Shown here piece after piece: positions 5,966-63,642 of a stretch of 64,000 bases of DNA. The stretch lies in sequence record OM867527.1; one strand, given 5' to 3'. Within the stretch, counting starts at the first letter, position 1; each line of letters begins with the position of its first letter. Source of the DNA: a phage. The notes beneath the pieces were generated by a model. It made no database searches, was not told the origin of the DNA, and was given only the letters and a program-made list of their open reading frames with translations. The translations under genes were made by a program, and so were the position numbers.

Positions 5966-6026
5966 ACATTCACTTACTGTACAGTGAATCTTCTTATACG
6001 ATATAAGTTTGAACAGGAATCATGCT

Positions 6027-9000
6027 ATGTCAACATTTGACCGTCTGGCAGGTTTCGCAGACAGCATCACTACTGCTAAGCAAGTCGATGTCTCTACTGC
6101 AACCTCTCGGAAACAAGCTGAACAAGGGCAAAACCCTTTCCAATTAACTCCTCAGAACGCTTACCAATTACAGGCAGGCCGTGCTGGTAACTTAGGTGCT
6201 GGTGCATTTGACCCAGGATCTATTCAGGCAGATTTTACTAATGCCTCCCCTCTTGAAATCATAAATAAGTATGGCAATGAGCAAGGAATGGGCATTCTCA
6301 ATGCTCGTGTCAATGCAGCTAATGCTGTTCGTCGTGATTTAACTAAGAGTCGTACATATGGTGAAGCACTTGGTGATACCCTTTCTGGTGTTGGTCTTGG
6401 TGTTGCTAATACCCTTGGGGGCATTGCTGCTCTTGGCACAGGCTTGGTCAATGATAATGCCGGGGCATCCATTGCTTCCGGTCTTGACTGGTTGAATAAA
6501 GGAGTACACAACCTACAGTCTGATGCACTGAATGCTCGCCGTAATGTAGTACAGAACCAGAACGTAATATCTGCTCAGGAAAACGAGAAACTCTATAAGC
6601 AGGATATTGATAAAGGAGAGAGTGAACTCGTTGCTTCTCTGTCTCGTATTGGGCGTGATGCTTATGATTCTGTTGCTAACACTTTGTCCAATGGCATGGC
6701 TGCTACAGATGGTCTGGCTGAAGGCGTTGGTTCACTGTTTACTGGTGGTCCACTTATCCGTGGTGTATCTGCACTTGGTAAAGTAATGGTAGGTGGGGAT
6801 AAAGCTGTTAAGGGCATTACCTTAGCTGCTGAATTAGGTTATCGTCCTGCACGTATTGCACAGACTGCTGGTCGTGTTGCTGCACCTGCTATAGCAATTG
6901 GTGGTATGGAAGCTGGTGGTGCATACCAACAGACTGCCAATGAAATTATGGAAATGCCATTCAGTGAACTGGCTGCTAAATCTCCTGTATACCAACAGCA
7001 TATTAAAGACGGTCTGTCTCCGGAAGAAGCACGTCGTCAGACTGCATCTGAAACGGGTATCACTGCTGCTGGCTTAACTGCTCCGGTTGCTGCTCTTACT
7101 GGTCCACTGGTATCTAAGTTTGAACTTAACCCACTCAAAGTAGGTTCACTGGCTGGTGCTGGTTCTAACATGCTGCGTGAGACTGTAGAAGAGGGTATCC
7201 AGTCTGGTACAAGCCAGCTTGCACAGAACAAGGCAATTCAAGGTAATGTAGATGCTAAACGTGATTTGCTTAAAGGTGTGGGTGAACAAGCTGGTCTTGG
7301 TGCATTGTATGGCTTTGGTTCTGCTGGAGTTGCTCAAGCTCCTGGTGCAACTGTTAAGGCTGCTGGTGCTGCCGTTGGTCCTGTTGTACGTACTACCCTG
7401 GCTGGTGCTTCTCTGGCTGGTAAGGCACTAGCAAAAGTAGCTTCCCCTATTACTAACATTCTGGTTCAACGTGGGGAAGAAGTTGCTAAGCGTAATGAAC
7501 AAGCATCCCCTGTATCAGACGCTACGGTTAATGCTGCTGCACAAGAAGCTACTGCTCAGGCAGAACAAGCACAAGCAACTGTTCAGGAAGCAGTAGATGC
7601 AATGGATATTTCTCCTGAAGAGAAAGCTGCTGCTACCCAGTATGCTGCTGACTTAACTCAGGCAATGAAGTTTGGCCCAGTAGAACTGGAACAAGCTAGT
7701 CCAGTAATCCGTGAAGCTGTTTCTGGTTCCACTAACCGTGTTGAAGCTATTCAGAAGATGGCTGACCTGGTTAATACTGCTGAAGACCCTAACGTTCAAA
7801 TGGAAGCTGCAATCCAGATGTATGACAACATCATGTCTATGGATAGCTTCATTAACCGTGACCCAGGTGCATTAGCTAATCTGGAACAAGGTTCTCCTGC
7901 TGCTAATATTGTTGACCAGTTCTCCGGCCTGATGGCTAACGTTCAGAATACACCTAAGGTGCTCCGTGCATTCCGTGCTATCCATTCCATGATTCAGGAA
8001 CAGGCAGAAGCAGGTAAACTGAAAGCTACTGAAGAAGCTAACCAAGCCCAGGCAAATAATATTGCTATGGCTGCTGATATGTCTCCAGAAGTACTGGATG
8101 CAGACTCAGTGAACATGGTTCTGAAACATGCAAGTGAAGGTAAGATTACGCTGGGGAATCGTCAGCGTGCTGCCCTGCAATCTGCTGCTGCTCTATTGCA
8201 AGGAGCACGAGAATTTGACGCTAAAGCAGAAGAACTGGGCTTACGTCCTCAAGACATTGTTAGTAAACAGATTAAAACCGACGAATCTCGTTCTAATGAA
8301 GGCCAGTACTCTGCGTTGCAACATGCTAAACGCATTCGTTCTGCGTACAACTCTGGTAACTTCGATTTGGCTTCCGCTTATCTCGACGACTTTATGAAGT
8401 TCGCCCAGCACATGCAGAATAAGGTCGGAGCGTTGAATGAGCATCTGATTTCGGGGAATGCGGATAAGAATAAGTCTGTCCATTATCAGGCTCTTACCCC
8501 CTCCCGTGAATGGGTACGTAGTCGTACTGGCCTCGGTGTCAATCCGTATGATACCAAGTCTGTTAAGTTTGCCCAGCAAGTAGGACTGGAAGCCAAGACC
8601 GTAGCTGATATTGCTAACGCACTTGCTACGGCTTACCCGGAGCTTAATGTTTCTCATGTGAAAGTTACCCCATTGGATTCACGTCTGGACAAGCCTGCTG
8701 CTCAGGTAGTTAAAGAGTTCCGTCAGGGCAATCTTGATGCTGCTCAATCCCAACAGACCAATGAACCAGTGAATCAGGTTGATGAAACTCCTGTTACGAA
8801 ACAGGAACCAGTTACCCCTACTGTACAGACTAAACCTTCTGTTAGTGAAGCTGTTAAAACAGAACCTACTATTAAAGAGTCTAAACCACAGACTGTAAAA
8901 GAACCTGAGAACCAGTCTGAAAAACAGGATAATGTTGATCAGTCTACTGAATCTGAAAGAGATGCTTATGTGAAAGAGAATACTATTTCACAAGATACTC

Positions 9001-12000
9001 TTAATAAGTACGGTGACCGTAAAGAGAGTCCTTGGCTTTTTGCAGATGGTACTGTTGTTGGTTCCAATGGTGACCACATTAGCCTGTCTGATGTATTTGG
9101 TCATGATGGTTATCGTGATATGTCATTAGATACAGGTGCTATTCGCTCTACCTTCTACAAAGGAAGCGAGCAACCATTTGTATCATTGCAACTGTTTGAT
9201 AATCAGAAACTGACTACTGAACAATTCAATACTGTTCAATCATTCGTAGAAGCAAACAATGCACTGATTCAGGTTGGTGTAGATACGTCTGGACGTAATA
9301 CCAATAATGTTGAGAAGCAAGAAGTATCACTGGCTCAACTGAAAGCAGACTATACAGTTGGTGGTAAACCACTCTCTGAGATGGAAACAGTGTTCCCTGT
9401 CTATAACAACGAAAAAACACCGAACCAGTTCCTTAAAGCATTTTCTCTACCAGAAGAACCTAAGTCCCGTACCATTGGTTCTGAATCCCCTTTGACTGAT
9501 GTTAAGAAAGCACTGTCTTCTGCTGCCCGTTTCGAAGCATTCACTCAAAAAGAAAATAACGCTCTCACAAGTGATGTGATTAAGCGTTATCAGGACTTAA
9601 TGGGGTTTGGTGAAACTCTGAAGACTACTTTATCTGATCGTCTGGCTAAGTTCCTTGCTAACAAGAATGTTGGTAAACGTTTTGCAGAAGGTACTGAGGC
9701 TAACCGCTGGGTAGGTGGTAAGTTACTTAACATCGTTGAGAAAGATGGCGACACCTTTAAGTTCAATGACCAATTGTTAGAGACTGCTGTACTTGCTGGT
9801 TTGCAATGGCGACTTACTGCTACCCAGAATGCTGCTGTTAAAGACATGAAAGGCGTAGCTGCCATTACTGGTGTGGAGGCATCCTTGTTACCTGAAGGTA
9901 TCCTTGCAGAGTTTGAGAATGCTCAGACCCTGGTTGAAGCTACTAACTCACTGGCTCAAAAGATTGAATCCTATTGGGGTTTGAATCGTAATCCTAATGC
10001 ACCTCTTGGTTATACCAAGGGTATCCCAATGGCAATGGCTACAGAGATTCTGTCTTCTCTCATTGAGATGGGTGAAGTTAAAGAGTCCATGCTGGATGTG
10101 TCTGAAATTGATCCAGAATCTAATAAGACTGTTGGTCTGTATACCATTGAGAAGTTAGATGATAACGATGCCATTAACAAATTCCCTACTGCTATTGAGG
10201 AAGCTGTCCTCCTAGAACCAGAAGAGAAGATGTACTTTGGTGATGACATTCCTTCCGTGGCTCAAACTCAGTTACGTAACCCAGCTGTTAAGAATACCCC
10301 GGAACAGAAAGCTGCTCTTAAAGCTGAGCAGGCTACTGAGTTCCATGTACATATGCCGATGGTTAACTTCTATGAAGCATTGGGTCGTGACAACATTCTG
10401 GAGCTGATGGGTGCTGGTGCTCTTAATCCTGAACTACTGAATGTGAATACCGCTAAATCTCTGGAAGGTAAAAACCTGTCCGTGTCTATGGCATATGATT
10501 CCTTGTTTGGTGTAATCAACCAGATTAAGGAACAAGAGAATGGTTTGGATACACCTATTCACTACGGTTACAACATGACCCGTGTAGGTCGTATGCAGAT
10601 GCTTGGTAAGAACAACCCACAATCCAGCAAGCTGGTACGTGAAGCAATCCTACCAACTTTCTCTACCATCGACTTAAGTAATGAAAACAGTCAAACGTTC
10701 TCTGACTTCCAGCTTGGACTGGCTCAGGCATTGGGTATCAAAGTTCATAAAATGTCCCGTGAAGTTATGTCGGATGAGCTGACTAAAGCTCTGGAAGGTA
10801 AATTGAAACCTGCCGTTGATATGATGGTTGAGTTTGATAAGTCTGGGCACTTACCTACTGATGCTGTGGATATTCTGAAGACCTCTTTGGGTAATGATAA
10901 ATCATTTGTAGCTCTCATGGCTCTGATGGAGTATGCCCGTTACTTGAACAGTGATGACCGTGCTAACTTTAATACCCCACTGTACGTTGAAGCTGATGGT
11001 GTAACCAACGGACCAATCAACGCAATGGTATTAATGACTGGTGGTAAGTTCACTTCAGATTGGATTAAGAATACTGCTAAAGGTGGTTTGTTCTTCGGTA
11101 AAGCTGGCAAGACTATGAACGAGCATCATTCACATGAGGATAGTGTTGACCTGTATGAAGCATCCACTAATAGCCTACAACAGGCACTGAACGAATTACG
11201 TAATACTTATCGTAACAACGTTCCTGTTACGAACCAGATGAAGCATCTCCAGAAGTTAATGGACCTATTCATTAAAGACTTCAATCTTAAGGAAGATGGT
11301 ACTCTGGACCTGAAACGCGGTATCGCTAAAAACCCACTGACTATCACCATCTACGGTTCAGGTGCTCGTGGTATTGCTGGCAAGATGGTAAGTGCAATTA
11401 CTGATGTCATCTATGAACGCTTCAGTGACGTTCTGCAAGCCCGTGCTGCTGACCCTAGCATTTCCCCGGCTATGGCAATGTTTGGTAAGGAGGCTGCATC
11501 TGAAGCTGACGCTCAGGCTATGCTGGATACTTTCCTTACTTCTATGGAAGCACTGACTGGTAATGTTCCGGTTATGCGTAAAGGCGAGCTGTCTATTCAG
11601 CAGGTAGAAGGTGCTCTGACCGGTAAATTAGACCCTCAGAAGTTTACTGTATCCGGTAATGCTCTGAAGAACTTACAAGAGAACATGCTTCACTTGTTCG
11701 TTGAGCCAATGCGTACTGGTATCCGAAATACTGTTGGTGAAGGTCTGATGTACTCTACTGAAAATTTGCAGAAGGCTACTCAGATTCAATCACTGGTATT
11801 GCAGGATATGTTCCAACAGGCAGTACAGGCTAAACTGGCAGAAAAAGAAAAAGACCCAACATGGAAGAAGGGTGATTTCTTAACGCAGAAAGAACTGAAT
11901 GAAATCCAGGAATCATTATCTCCACTGGCTCCAATGATTGAGACTGGTTCCCAGACTTTCTATATTGCTGGTAGTGAGAATACTGATGTTGCTAACCAAG

Positions 12001-46920: not shown

Positions 46921-46947
46921 TGCATATCCTTAAGCTGCGGAGCAGCT

Positions 46948-47298
46948 TTAACTCCAGTAGTTGTAAGCATCACCTAAGTATTTACGCCATGCTTCTGGTA
47001 ACAGCACGTTGCCAGTGACATTAATGAACAGGTATGGGTCCATAAAATCCATTCTCATTACTTTGAAATCCCATTGCGGATTAATAGATGCATAAGCAAT
47101 AAAACCCTCAATGAAGCCATAAATAGCACCTTCTTTGATCCGGTCACCACTACCATCTCTTACCGGAATGGCGAAGCTATTACCATAATGACCATAGGCC
47201 ATTCCCCATCGAGCACCATGCTTCTTATAAGCTAATTTGGCAGCAGCATTAGTATGCTGCCCTAGTGTATTGGTAGTGAATACTAAGATTTCTTTCAC
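46948..47298 (-). CDS. Hypothetical early protein (116 aa), Rossmann-like N-terminus
   Basis: N-terminal beta-strand/Gly pattern (EILVFTTNTLGQHTNAAAK...GNSFAIPV). No firm family assignment. Confidence 0.4.
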   Translation of the reverse strand: MKEILVFTTNTLGQHTNAAAKLAYKKHGARWGMAYGHYGNSFAIPVRDGSGDRIKEGAIYGFIEGFIAYASINPQWDFKVMRMDFMDPYLFINVTGNVLLPEAWRKYLGDAYNYWS

Positions 47299-49896: not shown

Positions 49897-50079
49897 TTAA
49901 TGATTTACGCATGATTTAGTACTCCACATAAAGTTAAAAGGTTTATTGTTACGTACAATTCTTACAACCATTTGATAGCCATTGAGTTGCACAACACCAT
50001 AGTGTCGTTTCTGTACACCAATGTGATACCTACGAAAGATACACTCTTCAATGGCATCTTCTATGTTAGTGAATATCAC
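49897..50079 (-). CDS. Hypothetical small protein (60 aa)
   Basis: Short ORF; start overlaps the upstream gene's stop. Confidence 0.25.
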   Translation of the reverse strand: MIFTNIEDAIEECIFRRYHIGVQKRHYGVVQLNGYQMVVRIVRNNKPFNFMWSTKSCVNH

Positions 50080-50294
50080 TGGTTCCTCTTAGCAAACTTT
50101 TCAGCTTCATTAGCCCAGAGTTGCTTACGAACTTCTTTGGCTACAATGGAAGCAAACAGACACTTAACGAATACAACTGGTAACTTGCAGATAAGTACCA
50201 GCTTAGTAATTACCCACTTGGCTCCATTGAGGATGTAACCACGTAGGCGATACAGCACATAGCAGAGTATTACAAACGCAATGAAGTCCAACAT
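50076..50294 (-). CDS. Small membrane protein (72 aa)
   Basis: N-terminal TM (MLDFIAFVILCYVLY) and a second hydrophobic segment. Confidence 0.35.
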   Translation of the reverse strand: MLDFIAFVILCYVLYRLRGYILNGAKWVITKLVLICKLPVVFVKCLFASIVAKEVRKQLWANEAEKFAKRNQ

Positions 50295-50298
50295 AGTC

Positions 50299-50484
50299 TT
50301 ACGCCTTATGAAGTTTACGGATTTGTTTACGAGTAGGTTTAGCTACAAAGAAGTGGTCATAGCAGTGACCATTTTCATCTTTTACGGATACCTGCCAACG
50401 AGCATTCAGTGTCATCTTACTGCCCCAAGGTTGCAACATAACAATCATCTTCTGTGAGTTATAACGGTTACATAATGTACGCAT
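50299..50484 (-). CDS. Hypothetical small protein (61 aa)
   Basis: Short ORF. Confidence 0.3.
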   Translation of the reverse strand: MRTLCNRYNSQKMIVMLQPWGSKMTLNARWQVSVKDENGHCYDHFFVAKPTRKQIRKLHKA

Positions 50485-50590
50485 AATGGTTACTCCTTCA
50501 TCTAATATAAATCTATATCTATCTGGTTACTGTTTCAGTACCCTTCGTCTAAAGATACTCAAAAAGTAGAAATAGCTTATCGTCTAGTTA

Positions 50591-50618
50591 AAAATAAAAG
50601 ACTCCCCGAAGGGAGTCT
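50591..50618 (-). terminator. Rho-independent terminator (minus strand), UUCG tetraloop
   Basis: Minus-strand reading: AGACTCCC-TTCG-GGGAGTCT followed by TTTTATTTTT. Confidence 0.6.
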
Positions 50619-50627
50619 ATTGATTGA

Positions 50628-51008
50628 TTAGAAAGTCAGTTTACGAGCATATTTATTCTCGTCTGCTGGGATGTCAGCAGCCTCTGCTTTCACACGACGA
50701 AGTTGAACTTGCAGGTTAATGATACCTTCCTCACCTGGTTCCAGGTTCTGAGCATATGCAATTAACTGTTCAAGCAAGTCATTCTGTGCACAACGCATAG
50801 CACGGAAGTCAGCATTGCTGCTATTAGTAGGCAGCGGTTCCTGAGTATCCAGTGGAATACCAGTAGGCAGAGAGATGAATTTCTCATCATCAGAGCCTTC
50901 GTTAGCTACATAACCAATGTTCAGCCAGAACTGAGCTTTAGGCTTATCAGTTTTAGCAGTGGTAGCAGCAGCGTTAAATTGACCGAAAGTGAATTTTTGA
51001 ATAGACAT
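50628..51008 (-). CDS. Hypothetical mildly acidic early protein (about 126 aa)
   Basis: ATG 51008 has a GGAG RBS (track start 51107 is upstream of it). No recognisable motif. Confidence 0.45.
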
Positions 51009-51194
51009 TTTGTACTCTCCAGATAAATGATTGTTTGATTTATGGGTTTGTCCGTCGGTGACTAAACCCAAGAAAAGACTTAGGATTTCGATAAGAAGTG
51101 GATTCATTCTTATCCTTTAGACGCGGAGCGTCTTGGTTTTTAGAAGTAGAAGTAAAGTAGATAGTTATCTACTTTTGACTATCTATCTAATGTT

Positions 51195-51222
51195 CAAAAC
51201 AGGAGACTCCGAAGAGTCTCCT
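51195..51222 (-). terminator. Rho-independent terminator (minus strand), UUCG tetraloop
   Basis: Minus-strand reading: perfect 9-bp stem AGGAGACTC-TTCG-GAGTCTCCT followed by GTTTTG. Confidence 0.6.
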
Positions 51223-51229
51223 AAGTGGC

Positions 51230-51553
51230 TTAGTCTTTAGTCAGGATGTCAATTACTTTGGAATATTCTGCGTTATAGATACGAGCGTTCTCTGAATCCT
51301 TGCAGAATTCCTCAATACTTTTCTTACGCAGAGTCTCAGTCATAGCTGTTTCCTCTGCCAGTTTATTAACAAAGGTATGCATTTCTAATTTAGTACGAAT
51401 GGCTTGTTTCTCTGCCATAGTACTTACATATGAATTAAGCATACCTACTGCTTTAGTTGCTGTACTGAATGTATCTGCAACAGTAGTAGCAGCTGAGTTA
51501 ACAGTACCAAGTAAAGTTCCTGCGGTCATACGTACAGTAGCTTGAGTAGTCAT
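51230..51553 (-). CDS. Hypothetical early protein (107 aa)
   Basis: Reverse ORF; helical-looking. Confidence 0.4.
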   Translation of the reverse strand: MTTQATVRMTAGTLLGTVNSAATTVADTFSTATKAVGMLNSYVSTMAEKQAIRTKLEMHTFVNKLAEETAMTETLRKKSIEEFCKDSENARIYNAEYSKVIDILTKD

Positions 51554-51637
51554 GATGATAGCTCCAATAGTTGATGATAGGACGACATGTCCATAACATG
51601 CGGAGCATGTGTAACGTGTAAGGTGGGGTAGGGTAGT

Positions 51638-51688
51638 GGCTACACCGTCAACATACCGGGGGGGCTAGTTGAGTGTAAGGGTGTAGCC
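51638..51688. repeat. Inverted repeat GGCTACACC ... GGTGTAGCC, 9 bp arms, 33-nt spacer
   Basis: Arms at 51638..51646 and 51680..51688 inside a 550-bp ORF-free gap; the spacer contains a G7 run. Confidence 0.45.
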
Positions 51689-51787
51689 CCAGCCACACCA
51701 CTATAGCCATGCATAACTATCACAATTTTGACATGCAAAAATATTATAGGCACTGTCTCTATAAGCAGATAACTTTGAGGTACTAAC

Positions 51788-51913
51788 ATGAAAGATGGAT
51801 GGGGTAACTACAATCCTACAGACCCTGAGAACTGGTTGCACTTTATTGCCTGTGCTTGTGCTGTAGGATTCATAGGTATTGTACTCTTGTCACTGGTTCT
51901 ACCTTATTTATAA
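51788..51913 (+). CDS. Candidate small hydrophobic peptide (41 aa) on the opposite strand
   Basis: ATG 51788 with upstream GAGG; encodes MKDGWGNYNPTDPENWLHFIACACAVGFIGIVLLSLVLPYL, which ends in one TM helix. Below the ORF-track length cutoff. Confidence 0.3.
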   Translation: MKDGWGNYNPTDPENWLHFIACACAVGFIGIVLLSLVLPYL

Positions 51914-52102
51914 ATACTATGGGGGATATCTATCTATCCCCTATTCATCGTAGCGTTTGATACTTAAAACCTCATATAGCCTACCATTTACAAGCAATGG
52001 TCCACCTACTTCTATGAAAGCTAGGCTGTGTACTATCACTGGTTCAGAGGAATAATGCAGTAAGTTAGTACCTTTCATTCCTAATAGTTTAACGTTCATG
52101 CT

Positions 52103-52387
52103 TCAGTACCTTTCCTTATAGATTGGGGTGTTGTTCTCGAAGGATAGGATGTACTTGTCTGTATTGAGATGCCAAGGGCTAAAGCTACCCTGCCAGGACA
52201 TTGGTGTACCTGGTTCAAGTAGATGTACTACCGAATTCTTATTGTATAGGAAGAGTAATCCTTGTATCTCATGTAGGGACTGTTCATCTGGAACCAGGAT
52301 AAGTACATCAGCATTCAGGTCAGCTATTTCTTTATGGAGGATGTAATTTTCCCCATTAGGCTCTGGATAAATTTTACTGATAACCAT
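52103..52387 (-). CDS. Member of a tandem paralogous early-protein family (94 aa)
   Basis: Shares the motif block LILVPDEQSLHEIQGLLFLYN...LLEP with the neighbouring ORFs. Confidence 0.45.
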   Translation of the reverse strand: MVISKIYPEPNGENYILHKEIADLNADVLILVPDEQSLHEIQGLLFLYNKNSVVHLLEPGTPMSWQGSFSPWHLNTDKYILSFENNTPIYKERY

Positions 52388-52707
52388 TAGAGACTCTTGC
52401 CGCTAGATAAATATGAGGTAGAAGGGTAGAGGGTAATAAGCCTGCCAGTTAAGGTAGTTACTACCATAGGTTCATTTTCAGAGAGTATGTACACGGAGGT
52501 GTGTTCCGGTATTTCCACGGAATCTACTATCTTAATGAATTGGATAGGTTGCCCTAACATTAAGCAAGTACCTATGAACACATCTGCTTCTTCACTTGGC
52601 TCATACAAGATGGCAGTAACTCTACCCTTACCTGCCAGAATATTATCCAATGTGTATGGGGATAAATAGCAAGTAGTGGCAAAGCTAATCAGGCAATACA
52701 GGTGCAT
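52387..52707 (-). CDS. Divergent member of the tandem paralogous early-protein family (106 aa)
   Basis: Weaker match (AILYEPSEEADVFIGTCLMLG...IVDSVEIPE) in the same position of the protein. Confidence 0.35.
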   Translation of the reverse strand: MHLYCLISFATTCYLSPYTLDNILAGKGRVTAILYEPSEEADVFIGTCLMLGQPIQFIKIVDSVEIPEHTSVYILSENEPMVVTTLTGRLITLYPSTSYLSSGKSL

Positions 52708-52710
52708 ATC

Positions 52711-53088
52711 TTACTTCCTTACATAGTAGTAACGGTATTCCCCCTTCTCATAACGACTCTCCCACTGATAGTCATCAGATACCATCATGTATGGGATAGG
52801 GTCATTAGCGTTATAGTTGGTATAGACAGAAGGAGGAATGATACATACAACCTTACGATCAATACCTGCTAAGAAAAGTTGACCCCTTACTTCATGGTAG
52901 TCCTCTAGAGCAGGAACTAAGATTACTTGATGAGGATTACTGCATATGACTTCTTCTAAAGTGAAGTCAGTTGTATACATAGGCTCCCTTTCATCATAGC
53001 TGGGGATGGTCATTATGAATTTCATGATTGATTTTCCTTCCTTTAGGGATAGGTCTGAAGTAAATGGAAAGTGTTTTATTAAAGACAT
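52711..53088 (-). CDS. Member of the tandem paralogous early-protein family (125 aa or shorter)
   Basis: VILVPALEDYHEVRGQLFLAG...CIIPP. Start is probably an internal Met, since the 5' end overlaps the upstream ORF. Confidence 0.45.
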   Translation of the reverse strand: MSLIKHFPFTSDLSLKEGKSIMKFIMTIPSYDEREPMYTTDFTLEEVICSNPHQVILVPALEDYHEVRGQLFLAGIDRKVVCIIPPSVYTNYNANDPIPYMMVSDDYQWESRYEKGEYRYYYVRK

Positions 53089-53389
53089 TATGGGCAGCTA
53101 TCAATTCCCAACCAGGTATTTTATAGAAACGTATACCAGGGAAGAACTCTTTGAAACCGTCATAACAGGTGAGGTCATACACCTTTGGTTCGGTAAGTAT
53201 CTCGGTATTGAGTTGTAGGTTTGCTAAGAAGAGAGAGCCAACAATCTCATGGGATTCTTCACAGTTAGGTAAGAACACAGATTGCCAGGGAGCAATGAAC
53301 TTACTTACTGTTTCTGGTTCCCCAAGTAGATAAGGTTCTTGCTTATGAAGTACTCCGGTAATATCAATATCAAAAGCGTAGATGCTCAT
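52994..53389 (-). CDS. Member of the tandem paralogous early-protein family (131 aa)
   Basis: VFLPNCEESHEIVGSLFLAN...ILTEP. Confidence 0.45.
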   Translation of the reverse strand: MSIYAFDIDITGVLHKQEPYLLGEPETVSKFIAPWQSVFLPNCEESHEIVGSLFLANLQLNTEILTEPKVYDLTCYDGFKEFFPGIRFYKIPGWELIAAHNVFNKTLSIYFRPIPKGRKINHEIHNDHPQL

Positions 53390-53402
53390 ATTTGCATACC
53401 TC

Positions 53403-53440
53403 CTGAAAAAGAAATGGGGTAGAGCCTCTCGACTCTACCC
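53403..53440 (-). terminator. Terminator-like hairpin within the paralog array
   Basis: Perfect 9-bp stem GGGGTAGAG / CTCTACCCC with 8-nt loop; T-rich run follows on the minus strand (ATTTCTTTTTC). Confidence 0.45.
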
Positions 53441-53589
53441 CTTACCGTTTTCTATCACGGGTCAGTTCATCACCCTAGATACATGTGTATCGTTAGCCTA
53501 CTAGGTAGGAAAGGAGCCGGGCAACCCTGACTGTAGAAGTTATTAACTCTTTACGAGTACCGCCACTGTCTACTAGGCGGCATGACTAA

Positions 53590-53880
53590 TCACATCGTCA
53601 CCGTCATCCGAACACTGTCTTTGCTTCGCCTGACGGAGACACTATGAGGTAATTTTGTGAAGAACACAAGAGCTGAAAGGCGTTTTTCTAAAGAGTAAGT
53701 TTCTCTTGGTTCTAAGATTTTAATGCCTGGACGATTCTCTAAAAGCATCATCCCAGCTAATTCATGGTAGGTGTCTTCATCATGTGTGATAATAATGTCA
53801 TCTGAGAGAATACCAGCTTTAGTGTGGTCTAGTTCTTTGTATTCATCTTTAGAGTCCTGGACTCTCATATAGATTCTCAA
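53590..53880 (-). CDS. Member of the tandem paralogous early-protein family (96 aa)
   Basis: IIITHDEDTYHELAGMMLLEN...ILEP. First gene of the reverse early block. Confidence 0.45.
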   Translation of the reverse strand: MRIYMRVQDSKDEYKELDHTKAGILSDDIIITHDEDTYHELAGMMLLENRPGIKILEPRETYSLEKRLSALVFFTKLPHSVSVRRSKDSVRMTVTM

Positions 53881-54051
53881 AGGTTACTCCTTTTAGTAAT
53901 AGGGTCATCGGAACATTACATACTATACAGTATCATGAACTTTTTCTATATCATGACTAAAGTGTAACTGTATGGTATCGTTTCTTCAAGGGGTAACTCA
54001 CCCCAAGAAAAGAATCTTCTTTAATAGACATAACTTTGTAGCGAGATAAGT

Positions 54052-54741
54052 ATGAGTGAATTAACTAAGCAGCAGATTATTAATGCCTTACCTGCTAACT
54101 TCAAAAACAGTGTGACCCAGGAGTTGGTAGACACGATTAACAACATTACCCAAGACCAACTGGTTGCTGAGTCCTTCCGTGAAAACTTTATCTCCTACTC
54201 TGGTGTAATGAAGGAAGGTAAGTTTAAGACGCAGGACTACATGAATGCAGTTCAGTATGTGACTTACAAACATATGGGCTACTCAAATAAGGAAGCCTAC
54301 TTCAAGACATTCCCTAACCGACAAGCAGAACTCGTAGCACGAGGAACCAGTGAGAAAGATATTAGTGCTTATGTATCTGCTTATCACAGAGGTAAGCTAG
54401 TTAACCTCATCATGGAACAAAGTTTGGTTCCAGTGTGGATTGTGAACCAGGACAATTATCAGAAGGCTATCAATGTTCAGGTTGAACTGATGACTACAGC
54501 AGTAAGTGAGAAAGTAAGATGTGATGCAGCTAACTCTATCCTTACTCACTTAGCTAAACCAAAGGATCAGGTAACAAATATCAATCTGGACTTGAGAGAG
54601 AACTCTGGATTAACTGACCTCAAGGCAACACTTGCTGCATTAGCTGAACAGCAAATCAGTGCAATCAATAGTGGTGTACCTACCAAAGAGGTTGCTGGTT
54701 CTAAACTAGTACGTGCAGATGAGGACATTACAGATGTCTGA
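54052..54741 (+). CDS. Putative terminase small subunit (by position upstream of the large subunit)
   Basis: 229-aa ORF whose stop overlaps the terminase large-subunit start; first gene of the forward late block. No motif confirmation. Confidence 0.35.
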   Translation: MSELTKQQIINALPANFKNSVTQELVDTINNITQDQLVAESFRENFISYSGVMKEGKFKTQDYMNAVQYVTYKHMGYSNKEAYFKTFPNRQAELVARGTSEKDISAYVSAYHRGKLVNLIMEQSLVPVWIVNQDNYQKAINVQVELMTTAVSEKVRCDAANSILTHLAKPKDQVTNINLDLRENSGLTDLKATLAALAEQQISAINSGVPTKEVAGSKLVRADEDITDV

Positions 54742-62442: not shown

Positions 62443-62772
62443 ATGAATGAATCGGGTGAACTGCTTCTAGTCAGACTGGAGGAACGATTGAAGACTCTGT
62501 TTGATAACCAGGCAAGAGACAGACAGGACCGTGAGAAACTGGAGGAAACTCTGGTAGAACTACGGGATTCAATCAATGACATAGGTAATAGACTAAAGAA
62601 TGTGGAGGATAGTTTAGCTAAGAATGAACCTACTATTGAAGAGTTCATCACCATTAAGCATAAAGTTGTTGGTGCTGGGATTTTTGGTAAGTGGGTATGG
62701 GCTGGTGCAGGTGCAATTATTGGTGTATTGGCTGCTGCAAGACGGGAGATATTCGCATGGTTCGCAGGCTAA
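62443..62772 (+). CDS. Lysis-associated protein with coiled-coil N-terminus and C-terminal glycine-zipper TM (holin or antiholin candidate)
   Basis: Charged helical N-terminal region followed by VVGAGIFGKWVWAGAGAIIGVLAAA; first gene of the lysis cassette. Confidence 0.4.
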   Translation: MNESGELLLVRLEERLKTLFDNQARDRQDREKLEETLVELRDSINDIGNRLKNVEDSLAKNEPTIEEFITIKHKVVGAGIFGKWVWAGAGAIIGVLAAARREIFAWFAG

Positions 62773-63017: not shown

Positions 63018-63642
63018 ACAAAAACTTGCTGCGAAAGGTGGTGCAGTGGGAGGAGTTATCGCTGCTATTCTGGGGGCAGTGTTTTATATGGAAGGGGGGT
63101 ATGTAAACAATCCCCGTGACCCAGGTGGGGAAACCAATCATGGTATTACCCATTCAGTAGCTAAGTCTCACAAAGAAGTTCTGGCTACTGAATACGGTTG
63201 GGACGGTTCTATGAAAGGTTTATCTAAAGAGATGGCTGCTGAGATATACATTGATGACTACGTACTTAAACCCAACTTCGTAGCCTTCGCTGATATATCT
63301 CCTGCTGTAACTCACAAGCTGGTAGATGCTGGTGTTAACACTGGTGTAACCCGTCCTGCTAAGTGGTTGCAGTTATCTCTTAATGAGATGTCCCGTAATG
63401 GCAAAGACTACCCTAAAATACAGGTTGATGGTAAAGTCGGTACAAGTACTGTTAATGCATATAAAGCATTACAGAAAAAACGAGGCAAAGTTGAAGCATG
63501 TAAGGTAATGATTAAGTTACTTGATGCTAAACAACTGAACCACTACACCTCATTAAACATGCCAGACTTTACGTATGGTTGGGTAGCTAACCGAATAGGC
63601 AATGTGCCACTGGAGGCATGTAATGAAGATGCTAATCTCTAA
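63007..63642 (+). CDS. Endolysin, N-acetylmuramidase (GH108-type) with peptidoglycan-binding C-terminal region
   Basis: EGGYVNNPRDPGGETNHGIT matches the GH108 catalytic signature found in the N4 lysin family. Confidence 0.8.
   Translation: MKAKQKLAAKGGAVGGVIAAILGAVFYMEGGYVNNPRDPGGETNHGITHSVAKSHKEVLATEYGWDGSMKGLSKEMAAEIYIDDYVLKPNFVAFADISPAVTHKLVDAGVNTGVTRPAKWLQLSLNEMSRNGKDYPKIQVDGKVGTSTVNAYKALQKKRGKVEACKVMIKLLDAKQLNHYTSLNMPDFTYGWVANRIGNVPLEACNEDANL

Follow-up and report, generated by a model that had tools for sequence, protein, structure and literature searches.

An intergenic gap in the record of Escherichia phage HK2 that holds a probable genome end, a predicted N4-type promoter and a small acquired gene

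In coliphage N4 the left end of the linear genome enters the cell first, with the first ~500 bp going in ahead of transcription, and the dependence of this linear genome on gyrase is surprising, requiring as it does a topological constraint (PMC4496689). Promoters of the N4 type have a stem of 5–7 bp and a 3-nt loop, with a GC-rich heptamer centred at −11 (PMC4496689), and require a purine at −11, G at −10, A at −12, C at −9 and G at −8 of the template strand. Their stems may have any sequence provided that they pair, and initiation from them in vivo resists rifampicin and needs gyrase together with the single-strand-binding protein of the host. Middle transcription in N4 is restricted to the leftmost half of the genome (PMC4496689). 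The left end of N4 has been described as unique, in contrast to the gp1-proximal end of IME11 with its three to four adjacent read starts, and N4-type ends are reported to have 3′ extensions with one end being micro-heterogeneous, unlike those of T7-like phages. Among the Gamaleyaviruses, read starts of IME11 pile up at 63122–63124 and at 62722, and its repeat is 401 bp (PMC3896407). The ends of G7C were checked by run-off sequencing and the left end of Mimir124, which has a repeat of 401 bp, was located with PhageTerm (PMC11640937).

The window, meaning the whole stretch of 64,000 nucleotides analysed here (OM867527.1), is a 100% match to Escherichia phage HK2, a Gamaleyavirus of the Schitoviridae and a G7C-like relative of N4. 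The record starts at an arbitrary position, contains one copy of the terminal repeat and is without annotation of the ends, the terminal repeat or the three early promoters. An initial annotation had drawn attention to a 550-bp stretch free of open reading frames inside the early block. The record is very probably a linear N4-like genome written in circularly permuted form, with the gap representing the seam of its two physical ends, where the unique DNA of the right end would join the single collapsed copy of a direct terminal repeat of ~400 bp. The position inside the early block holds for the permuted record only. In the linear genome the flanks of the gap lie far apart, one at each end, with the homologs of gp70–gp72, which have the higher coordinates, at the far right. 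Within the gap are the predicted left end of the genome, the first of the hairpin promoters of the virion RNA polymerase and an acquired gene for a small membrane protein. Each is of a known kind, making HK2 a new instance of an ordinary N4 architecture.

In the layout proposed for the minus strand, read from high to low coordinates, the right-end operon would close with the gp72 homolog and then a terminator hairpin, followed on the opposite strand by a horizontally acquired gene for a membrane protein of 41 amino acids. A conserved block would then run up to the site of the packaging cut in the concatemer, with the left genome end at ~51696. The first ~85 bp would comprise a conserved module of TACAC boxes, a C7 tract and CCTACCCCAC, after which a DNA hairpin at 51596–51610, extruded on the template strand, would act as promoter P1 for the injected virion RNA polymerase, with transcription running from 51592 into gp1.

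The predicted left end and direct terminal repeat

Alignment with relatives whose ends have been mapped shows the position of the predicted genome end. The physical left end, using the N4 convention, falls at 51693..51697 on the minus strand, most likely at 51696, though the terminal nucleotide could be anywhere in 51693–51697. Nucleotide 1 of N4, G7C, St11Ph5, PhAPEC7, U1G and KP8 corresponds to positions 51693–51696 of the window and, with IME11 and Mimir124 included, the ends of all eight fall in the same register at 51693–51697. The main read start of IME11, GTGGCTGGGGCTACACC, is equivalent to 51696 and its two sets of pile-ups map to 51695–51697 and 51295, respectively; IME11, whose record runs in the same direction, shares 99% identity with HK2 over the terminal 121 nt. 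From these mapped ends the direct terminal repeat of HK2 would be ~402 bp in length, present as one collapsed copy at about 51295..51696 on the minus strand, and would take in the terminal module, P1 and ~86 codons from the start of gp1. The repeat region annotated for Mimir124 (403 bp in its record) stops at the equivalent place, and the records of UE-S5a, UE-M3, UE-S5b and PBM-3 start at the equivalent of 51295. The end is thus positioned in HK2 as it is in G7C, IME11 and Mimir124, implying a repeat of ~401 bp. The record of G7C has a 1160-bp stretch labelled only as containing the terminal repeat.

Across the phages compared, the end is found at a near-constant 3–6 nt from GGGGCTACACC and the conservation covers both sides of the cut. 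Just outside the repeat, comparison with relatives reveals a conserved non-coding block (51697..51780, minus strand), which contains the T-run (ATATTTTTGCAT) of the putative right-end terminator and, immediately before the cut that forms the end, the sequence ..AGTGGT. This block is conserved in all Gamaleyaviruses, with or without the small gene described below, and is recognisable in N4, where its last 60 nt are 66% identical. In N4, IME11/HK2, JWAlpha and the N4-like L189, L194 and L162, the end comes after a motif resembling CAGTNNT. K1-5 and HK2 also share a few bases just ahead of their repeats (GTCAAAATT.TGAT), a likeness treated as chance. A perfect TATAAT at 51748–51743 on the minus strand was also discarded as a promoter; it is not conserved, being TATCAT, TATGGT or CTAAAT in relatives, and it overlaps the T-run of the putative terminator. 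Three minus-strand open reading frames, at 51640..51789, 51701..51841 and 51498..51608, run across the physical end or the promoter and were for this reason not accepted as genes. The records of several relatives have spurious gene calls running across the physical end.

The probable right end and its small membrane-protein gene

The gap is smaller than was first described, ~390 bp rather than 550 bp, because 51941..52099 on the minus strand encodes a homolog of N4 gp72, leaving 51554..51940 as the gene-free stretch of that strand. The protein, of 52 amino acids, is the last of the right-end operon formed by the homologs of gp70–gp72. It is annotated in the HK2 record, belongs to phrog_19797 (E 2.7e-21) and is 63% identical to N4 gp72 by BLASTP (E 8e-15). 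Between this gene and the small gene that converges on it, a terminator scan picked out a hairpin at 51922..51941, GGGGATA-GATAGA-TATCCCC, with a stem of seven pairs (four of them GC) and a 6-nt loop, and with a DNA fold of −5.4 kcal/mol (z −2.6 for either strand). Its resemblance to a terminator is limited to the minus strand, where alone the tail, CATAGTATTT, passes the criterion of the scan of five Ts in eight. In the relatives L114 and L023, where the small gene is missing, the equivalent hairpin directly abuts the better T-run of the block before the terminus.

On the opposite strand the initial annotation had noted a 41-codon open reading frame with a ribosome-binding site and one transmembrane helix, and both features are borne out. 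The frame lies at 51788..51913 on the plus strand, with GAGGT at 51777–51781, 6 nt upstream of the ATG, and the helix spans residues 20–38 (mean Kyte–Doolittle value 2.78). Homologs were found by tblastn in eight other Gamaleyavirus records at 87–98% identity and in 12 records of Vectrevirus (K1-5-like) at 53% (E 1e-6), and the protein matches K1-5 gp49 by BLASTP with an E of 3e-15. With pN/pS values of 0.06–0.36, the comparisons show the frame to be a real gene, under purifying selection, for a predicted single-pass membrane protein. UE-S5a carries a natural amber variant of it. It has no PHROG or Pfam family; an exhaustive HMMER search added only P0006 and P0007, which on inspection were repeat-junk proteins. 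The gene is present only in some Gamaleyaviruses and in K1-5-like phages, and the evidence points to an accessory gene of patchy occurrence, not to one that regulates the gap. It may be a ‘moron’, being patchy among close relatives and having homologs across families, a ribosome-binding site and a downstream hairpin, though the match to a promoter is only 9/12. This candidate sigma-70-like site, ATCACA-17-TATTAT at 51719..51747 on the plus strand, came from a consensus scan and is weak. The scan was set aside as evidence for a promoter, there being fewer matches in the region (3) than in shuffles (9.7), and conservation of the site cannot be credited to a promoter because relatives without the small gene keep the same bases.

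T7-like phages have short exact terminal repeats, and the non-coding DNA flanking the repeat boundary is conserved on either side. Their concatemer junctions resemble that of HK2 in layout, with no similarity in sequence. The likeness extends to the final gene, a small one that closely precedes the right repeat; that of K1-5 gp49 ends 39 nt before a repeat of 234 bp. K1-5 gp49, an unannotated protein of 42 amino acids, is 53% identical to the HK2 protein over 36 residues, and the two have in common the motif KDGW..Y.PTDP.NW followed by one transmembrane helix. Both genes adjoin the right terminal repeat. However, gp49 is co-oriented with all the other K1-5 genes, towards the repeat, while the HK2 gene is on the strand opposite to its neighbours and points away from it.

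The predicted promoter P1 and the early genes

A motif scan, with criteria taken from the review PMC4496689, and alignment with P1 of N4 identified a promoter of the virion RNA polymerase hairpin type at 51596..51610 on the minus strand. The template (plus) strand reads ACATGC-GGA-GCATGT, forming a 6-bp stem with a 3-nt loop, in agreement with the fold, and the heptamer GCGGAGC occupies 51600–51606, so that both stem and loop are those of an N4-type promoter. The bases required of the template strand are all present: G51603 (−11), G51602 (−10), A51604 (−12), C51601 (−9) and G51600 (−8). The predicted start, a template C at 51592, is 39 nt upstream of the homolog of gp1, and the promoter is ~105 nt from the predicted left end. 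The site aligns base for base with P1 of N4 and with a site annotated as ‘early promoter’ in KP8; the row of PGN829.1, which had wrong coordinates, was disregarded. On the template strand, N4 and HK2 agree in the loop and the pairs that close it (GC-GRA-GC) as well as in the C at +1; they differ in the stem, ACATGC/GCATGT in HK2 and GTTGC/GCAAC in N4, and in the loop, which is GGA in HK2, as in P2 of N4, and GAA in P1 of N4.

Two other stem-bearing matches to the motif were found, both on the strand of P1 and upstream of early genes. The P2-like promoter (51119..51133, minus strand; template AGACGC-GGA-GCGTCT) has its predicted start at 51115, 8 nt before the ATG of the gp2 homolog, and the P3-like promoter (46932..46948, minus strand; template AAGCTGC-GGA-GCAGCTT) at 46929. 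In all three a template C is found at +1, eight nucleotides downstream of −8 (C51592, C51115 and C46929), and the RNA would begin with GG, as from P1 and P2 of N4. Across 14 promoters 100% of the cells are paired, with 16 double changes and three of the five hairpin pairs changed on both sides; none of 500 shuffles reaches this, although the promoters were picked for having at least two extra stem pairs, a choice that inflates the statistic. The setting of P1 is also as expected: it is in the leftmost part of the genome, on the early-gene strand and ahead of an early gene, and the phage has a gene of its own for the polymerase (6009..16811; 3600 amino acids; phrog_2206, E 0). The early gene, at 51230..51553 on the minus strand, is the first and belongs to phrog_5020, has a GGAG ribosome-binding site at 51565–51562 and encodes a protein 66% identical to N4 gp1 (E 7e-51). 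The anatomy of a predicted N4-type virion RNA polymerase promoter is shown by these comparisons, and P1 would be expected to be used in transcription. The suggestion that the gap might be a promoter or regulatory region was therefore correct in that it contains P1, but it had been attached to the wrong element, as the inverted repeat that had been flagged, which ends 28 nt upstream of P1, is not the promoter.

The terminal module and its possible roles

Between the end and P1, conservation and the uniqueness of its elements define a terminal cis-module (51611..51696, minus strand), consisting of GGGGCTACACCC at 51690–51679, a C7 tract at 51664–51658 followed by GGTATG, CCTACCCCAC at 51632–51623 and, within the same interval, the TACAC boxes. 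The left end of N4 (nucleotides 1–153 of EF056009) has the same order as HK2: the end, GGGGCTACACC, poly-C, GTGTAGCC, CCTACCCCACC, TACAC boxes, the hairpin, the TTATGG start and gp1. In N4 the poly-C is C9 followed by TGTC, and relative to N4 there are ~6 extra bases (TGGCTG) beside the end in HK2. The terminal block is 77% identical between the two phages, compared with 72% and 75% for the coding sequences of gp1 and gp2. Neither C7 nor CCTACCCCAC is found a second time in the 64 kb, and 110 nt hold five TACAC/GTGTA sites where 0.23 would be expected, a density reached nowhere else in the window. The module is specific to the terminus, being absent upstream of P2 and P3. The combination of C7-GGT, a C-rich box and a hairpin is also seen in KP8, RiverRider, JWAlpha and uncultivated N4-like contigs, and in LUZ7, whose end was mapped by experiment, the C7-GGT tract lies 28 nt from that end. 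A first pattern used on IMG/VR, CCTACCCCAC...GCTYCGC, was too unspecific, giving at least 120 stretches that were mostly chance and were filtered afterwards; a second scan gave 49 distinct sequences, and a real hairpin was present in only ~15 of them. These comparisons show conservation of the predicted module (TACAC boxes, C7 tract and CCTACCCCAC) across the Schitoviridae, other subfamilies included.

It would seem likely that the TACAC boxes and C-rich elements are recognition sites for a protein in the formation of ends by terminase, although a role in anchoring the end, or a structural one, would be equally compatible with the conservation of the module. The product of 54052..54741, a homolog of gp69, is no more than a guess for the small subunit of the terminase. 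The literature searched contains neither a description of these terminal elements nor a defined packaging signal of N4-like phages. Of the other roles, that of an anchor fares best but is still unlikely. The leading end would here be bound by an ejected protein, the virion RNA polymerase or another, or by a host factor, and the resulting topological constraint would leave gyrase able to extrude the P1 hairpin even with a free end only ~90 bp away. Such an anchor would suit both the constraint that gyrase dependence demands of a linear genome and the entry of the left end, ~500 bp of it, before transcription (PMC4496689). The position of the module between the end and P1 and at no other promoter, as well as its family-wide conservation, is consistent with it too. 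However, the conservation continues outside the repeat, across the cut, which a packaging signal fits better, because the DNA across the cut sits at the opposite end of the mature genome. There is a similarly small chance that the module (TACAC boxes, C7-GGT and the CCTACCCC box) is a cis-element of the whole Schitoviridae that acts at infection to hold the leading DNA end; it may do so through binding of an ejected protein or through a non-B fold of the G-rich template strand. If true, the first hairpin promoter could be extruded ~90 bp from a free end, and this would give a handle on a long-noted puzzle, the gyrase-dependent early transcription from the linear N4 genome.

The inverted repeat described in the initial annotation is present, with perfect 9-bp arms GGCTACACC (51638–51646) and GGTGTAGCC (51680–51688) and a 33-nt spacer that includes the G7 run at 51658–51664. 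It lies 8–58 nt inside the genome end, upstream of the predicted P1 start, and is made up of one inverted TACAC box paired with the terminal CTACACC box. That it works as a DNA structure, with the terminal ~75 nt folding back or extruding as a cruciform that could prime replication of the end or offer terminase a structure to cut, is improbable. An imperfect extension, with 20-nt arms (51627–51646 and 51680–51699) that are 75% complementary, does reach the very end of the genome, shorter versions are found in N4 (8 bp), G7C (7 bp, with the register shifted) and the relative L060 (6 bp), and beside the cut site of some distant N4-like contigs there is a local hairpin, strong and made of GC pairs (8 bp in L162, 7 bp in L189 and 6 bp in L118). 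Against this, among 500 dinucleotide shuffles of 51553–52103 there are 65 (13%) in which perfectly matched arms of 9 bp or more stand 3–60 nt apart, and the region itself has a longer inverted repeat, of 10 bp, at 51812–21/51861–70. Across 16 distinct relatives 67.4% of the cells are paired, compared with 67.9% in shuffles, and none of the nine pairs has a compensatory change. Single-strand folding is equally unsupportive, with z only −1.6 and −1.9 in HK2 and −0.3 in N4. The distal arm is conserved. The proximal arm decays in Bas96, G7C and L060; in Bas96, L090 and L114 it has mutations that the other arm does not make good, and KP8 no longer has it. Terminal local hairpins were not accepted as a universal theme, occurring in about a third of lineages; there is none in HK2, RiverRider, L133, L161, L190 or L196. 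The inverted repeat is thus best regarded as without a structural role, a probable by-product of oppositely oriented TACAC boxes, though since it is kept at 8–9 bp in both N4 and HK2-type phages a structural role limited to these lineages may remain.

Less probable still is that the G-rich plus strand, the template of P1, forms a G-quadruplex, or the C-rich strand an i-motif, that would keep the end single-stranded. By G4Hunter, 51658–51682 is the top 25-nt window of the 64 kb (1.60) and 51616–51640 is within the top six, and 11 lineages have three to five C-tracts on the same strand, with 36–52% C against 2–23% G, a count that is partly circular because the relatives were selected on two of the C-tracts. 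The window has no canonical quadruplex motif (four tracts of G3 or more with loops of up to 12 nt), however; four G3 tracts would need loops of about 24 and 14 nt, and 51625–51681 qualifies only when loops of up to 30 nt are allowed.

The proposal that the gap is a small regulatory RNA, or a switch between early and middle transcription made of a terminator and a promoter, has very little to recommend it: although a terminator-like hairpin (51922–51941) and P1 are indeed there, Rfam covariance models gave no match at E≤1 on either strand of 50000–54200 and ARAGORN no tRNA or tmRNA in the whole window, the repeat has no compensatory changes, lies upstream of the P1 start and has no promoter from which it could be transcribed by itself, the apparent break corresponds to the physical end of the genome and the edge of the terminal repeat, in the infecting molecule there is no transcription across the gap, and the confinement of middle transcription to the leftmost half of N4 (PMC4496689) argues against a switch at this place.

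For annotation, the lesson is that an apparent internal gap in a phage record can be the seam between genome ends. As the promoter and the genome end are already known from N4, there is little biological surprise in them. What is added is modest: elements in the first ~85 bp that are conserved from coliphages to phages of Pseudomonas, Achromobacter and Xanthomonas, and that are obvious targets for work on packaging and on the anchoring of the end.

Gene setting and the ends of the HK2 genome

The stretch 50500-53500 matches Escherichia phage HK2 (PP514361, megablast) at 100%, a Gamaleyavirus of the Schitoviridae whose relatives include G7C, IME11, Mimir124 and Bas96, with coliphage N4 more distant; window positions are those of the HK2 record minus 5862. 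The minus strand carries the early genes, with homologs of N4 gp1 at 51230..51553 (-; 66% identity) and of gp2 at 50628..51107 (-), and the 3600-residue virion RNA polymerase is encoded at 6009..16811 (phrog_2206, E 0). The region between gp1 and the paralog array had been described as a 550-bp gap free of ORFs, which is an overstatement, as 51941..52099 (-) encodes a homolog of N4 gp72 that is annotated in the HK2 record. The array itself (52103..53880, -) consists of gp70/gp71-family genes, on which the models phrog_16338, 11661 and 7213 cross-hit each other.

The gap is the seam where the genome ends meet. The G7C and N4 records start 144 and 153 nt upstream of their respective gp1 genes, and nucleotide 1 of N4, G7C, St11Ph5, PhAPEC7, U1G and KP8 aligns to window 51693-51696. 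Run-off sequencing confirmed the ends of G7C, and PhageTerm put the left end of Mimir124 in a similar place and gave a repeat of 401 bp (PMC11640937), annotated as 403 bp in the Mimir124 record. IME11, 99% identical to HK2 at the end region and in the same orientation, shows read-start pile-ups at 63122-63124 (GTGGCTGGGGCTACACC...) and 62722, separated by 401 bp (PMC3896407); these transfer to window 51695-51697 and 51295, and the records of UE-S5a and several other phages start exactly at the equivalent of 51295. Because the mapped ends and record starts of relatives coincide there, we infer a terminal repeat in HK2 at ~51295..51696, its end being homologous to the mapped ends. The genes at higher coordinates (gp70, the gp71 paralogs and gp72 homologs) lie at the right-hand terminus of the linear genome and not 'upstream' of gp1. 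N4-like phages are known to vary strongly immediately ahead of the right repeat, where LUZ7 has 29 extra small genes (PMC3715699). Since the predicted right end at 51295 falls within gp1, the right-hand copy of the repeat would carry P1, the hairpin promoter discussed below, and a gp1 truncated after ~86 codons.

In IME11 the gp1-proximal end comprises 3-4 adjacent read starts and the opposite end is sharp (PMC3896407), whereas N4 is described in reverse, with a unique left and a heterogeneous right end; this may come from the repair of 3' extensions at the ends or from the orientation chosen in the paper. Small minus-strand CDSs are annotated in Bas96 (1341-1439, Bas96_0088) and Mimir124 (204-314, XLZ23735). 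Both overlie the terminal module or the P1 region, Bas96_0088 crossing the physical genome end, and they are probably over-calls.

Predicted hairpin promoters for the virion RNA polymerase

N4 early promoters are template-strand DNA hairpins with a 5-7 bp stem, a 3-nt loop and a GC-rich heptamer centred at -11, contacted through the -11 purine, -10G and -8G, with a template C at +1 (PMC4496689). The heptamer fits the GCGNAGC mini-hairpin motif as outlined in PMC13037366. Scanning the 64 kb for GCGRAGC gave seven sites, only three of which have at least four extra stem pairs, all three on the + (template) strand of the early region: P1 at 51596-51610, a P2-like hairpin at 51119-51133 and a P3-like hairpin at 46932-46948. 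In all three a template C lies exactly 11 nt from the centre of the loop, and the predicted RNAs, starting on the minus strand at 51592, 51115 and 46929 respectively, all begin GG, as do the N4 P1 and P2 RNAs. The P1 site aligns base for base with N4 P1 and with the KP8 site annotated 'early promoter'. Among 14 promoters, a set chosen for some pairing, the stem is paired throughout while its sequence varies. At the level of sequence, P1 shows all the features by which an N4 early promoter is defined. The suggestion that the gap is a promoter or regulatory region is right in outline, although the element singled out, the inverted repeat, was the wrong one; neither a small RNA locus nor a switch between early and middle transcription is supported.

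The predicted P1 start lies 39 nt ahead of the gp1 ATG, which has GGAG 8 nt upstream. From the P2-like start the leader to the gp2 homolog ATG at 51107 is only 8 nt, without a Shine-Dalgarno sequence; that of N4 P2 is also short, at ~14 nt. No hairpin promoter precedes the genes at 52103..53880, which would therefore not be driven by the virion polymerase. Within this array, 53416-53441 (-) forms a strong hairpin resembling a terminator. A separate hairpin, GGAGACTC-TTCG-GAGTCTCC at 51202-51221 (-), directly follows the gp1 stop codon, as a similar one does in N4, and probably either terminates early transcription or stabilises the RNA.

The small ORF at 51788..51913

The 41-codon plus-strand ORF at 51788..51913, with its GAGGT ribosome-binding site, is present as first described, and its product, an acidic 19-residue N-terminal tail and one hydrophobic helix, does end in that helix. 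By tblastn it occurs in HK2, PE007, PBM-2/3, the UE phages and VTCCBPA_322 and is absent from G7C, Bas96 and Mimir124; K1-5-like Vectreviruses carry a homolog at 53% identity as gene 49. Two large protein searches returned no homologs beyond these Gamaleyavirus and K1-5-like copies, and a PHROG/Pfam search found no family. The pN/pS of 0.06-0.36 among the Gamaleyavirus copies shows that the ORF is coding. In UE-S5a (494-619) an in-frame TAG at codon 14 interrupts a copy otherwise equal to the intact one of PBM-3, so the gene is either dispensable or very recently lost; it is left unannotated in both UE-S5a and UE-M3. The cassette separates the gp72 terminator hairpin from the T-run by which this hairpin is followed in relatives, and its candidate promoter matches the consensus only weakly. 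In K1-5 (2498-2899) gene 49 is the last of the genome, and 39 nt lie between its end and the 234-bp right terminal repeat. This spacer holds GTCAAAATTTTGAT, resembling GTCAAAATTGTGAT in the HK2 pre-terminus block, a likeness that may be due to chance.

The inverted repeat and the terminal module

The 9-bp inverted repeat (51638-51646 and 51680-51688, with a 33-nt spacer including G7) exists in the sequence; it is located 8-58 nt inside the genome end, on the upstream side of the P1 start. It does not stand out statistically: when the region is shuffled with dinucleotides preserved, 13% of the shuffles contain an equally long or longer repeat, and the gap itself contains a longer one. Folding gives z-scores of just -1.6 to -1.9. 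Covariation proposed as a check was not seen: in 16 distinct relatives no arm pair had changed on both sides and pairing was at shuffle level. The end-proximal arm (GGGGCTACACCC) is kept as sequence, while the other drifts (CCTGTAGCC in Bas96, GGGTGTAC in G7C, lost in KP8). Each arm is a copy of one short box, TACAC.

This box belongs to a terminal module at 51611..51696 (-). A stretch of 110 nt here holds five TACAC boxes, of which four are direct and one is inverted, where 0.23 would be expected, and no other part of the window has as many; the C7 tract and CCTACCCCAC each occur once in the 64 kb. The block is 77% identical to N4, conserved at least as well as the adjacent coding sequences, and the order TACAC boxes, C7-GGT, C-rich box and hairpin promoter recurs in KP8 (Klebsiella), RiverRider (Xanthomonas), JWAlpha (Achromobacter) and uncultivated N4-like contigs. 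In LUZ7 (Pseudomonas) a C7-GGT tract lies 28 nt from ends mapped by direct sequencing. The poly-C tract (51658-51664) is C7 in most relatives, C6 in U1G, VTCCBPA_322 and L090, C9 in N4, L060 and L114, and C12-13 in PE007 and L029 (L-numbers denote relatives' sequences); such variation between close relatives looks like homopolymer slippage or sequencing error. In some distant N4-like phages, the IMG/VR contigs L162, L189, L118 and L181, a strong hairpin rich in GC (5-8 bp stem, 3-5 nt loop) adjoins the predicted cut site, just within the predicted left end, and that of L189 shares with the promoters a GGA loop on the template strand; no such end-adjacent hairpin is present in HK2 and several other N4-like phages.

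Outside the terminal repeat a further ~80 nt are conserved, ending in an ..AGTGGT motif right at the cut, and the distance from the cut to GGGGCTACACC is near-constant. Given conservation on both sides of the cut and this spacing, the module is most economically read as a site recognised when the ends are formed during packaging. It could possibly instead anchor the genome end at infection. A non-B DNA structure is also possible, the module's plus strand having the highest-scoring G4Hunter window in the 64 kb, although a G-quadruplex would form here only with long loops. We found no description of the module in the literature searched. The gap as a whole is a new instance of the well-described N4 architecture, and the conserved terminal module is the sole part of it that might repay experiments.
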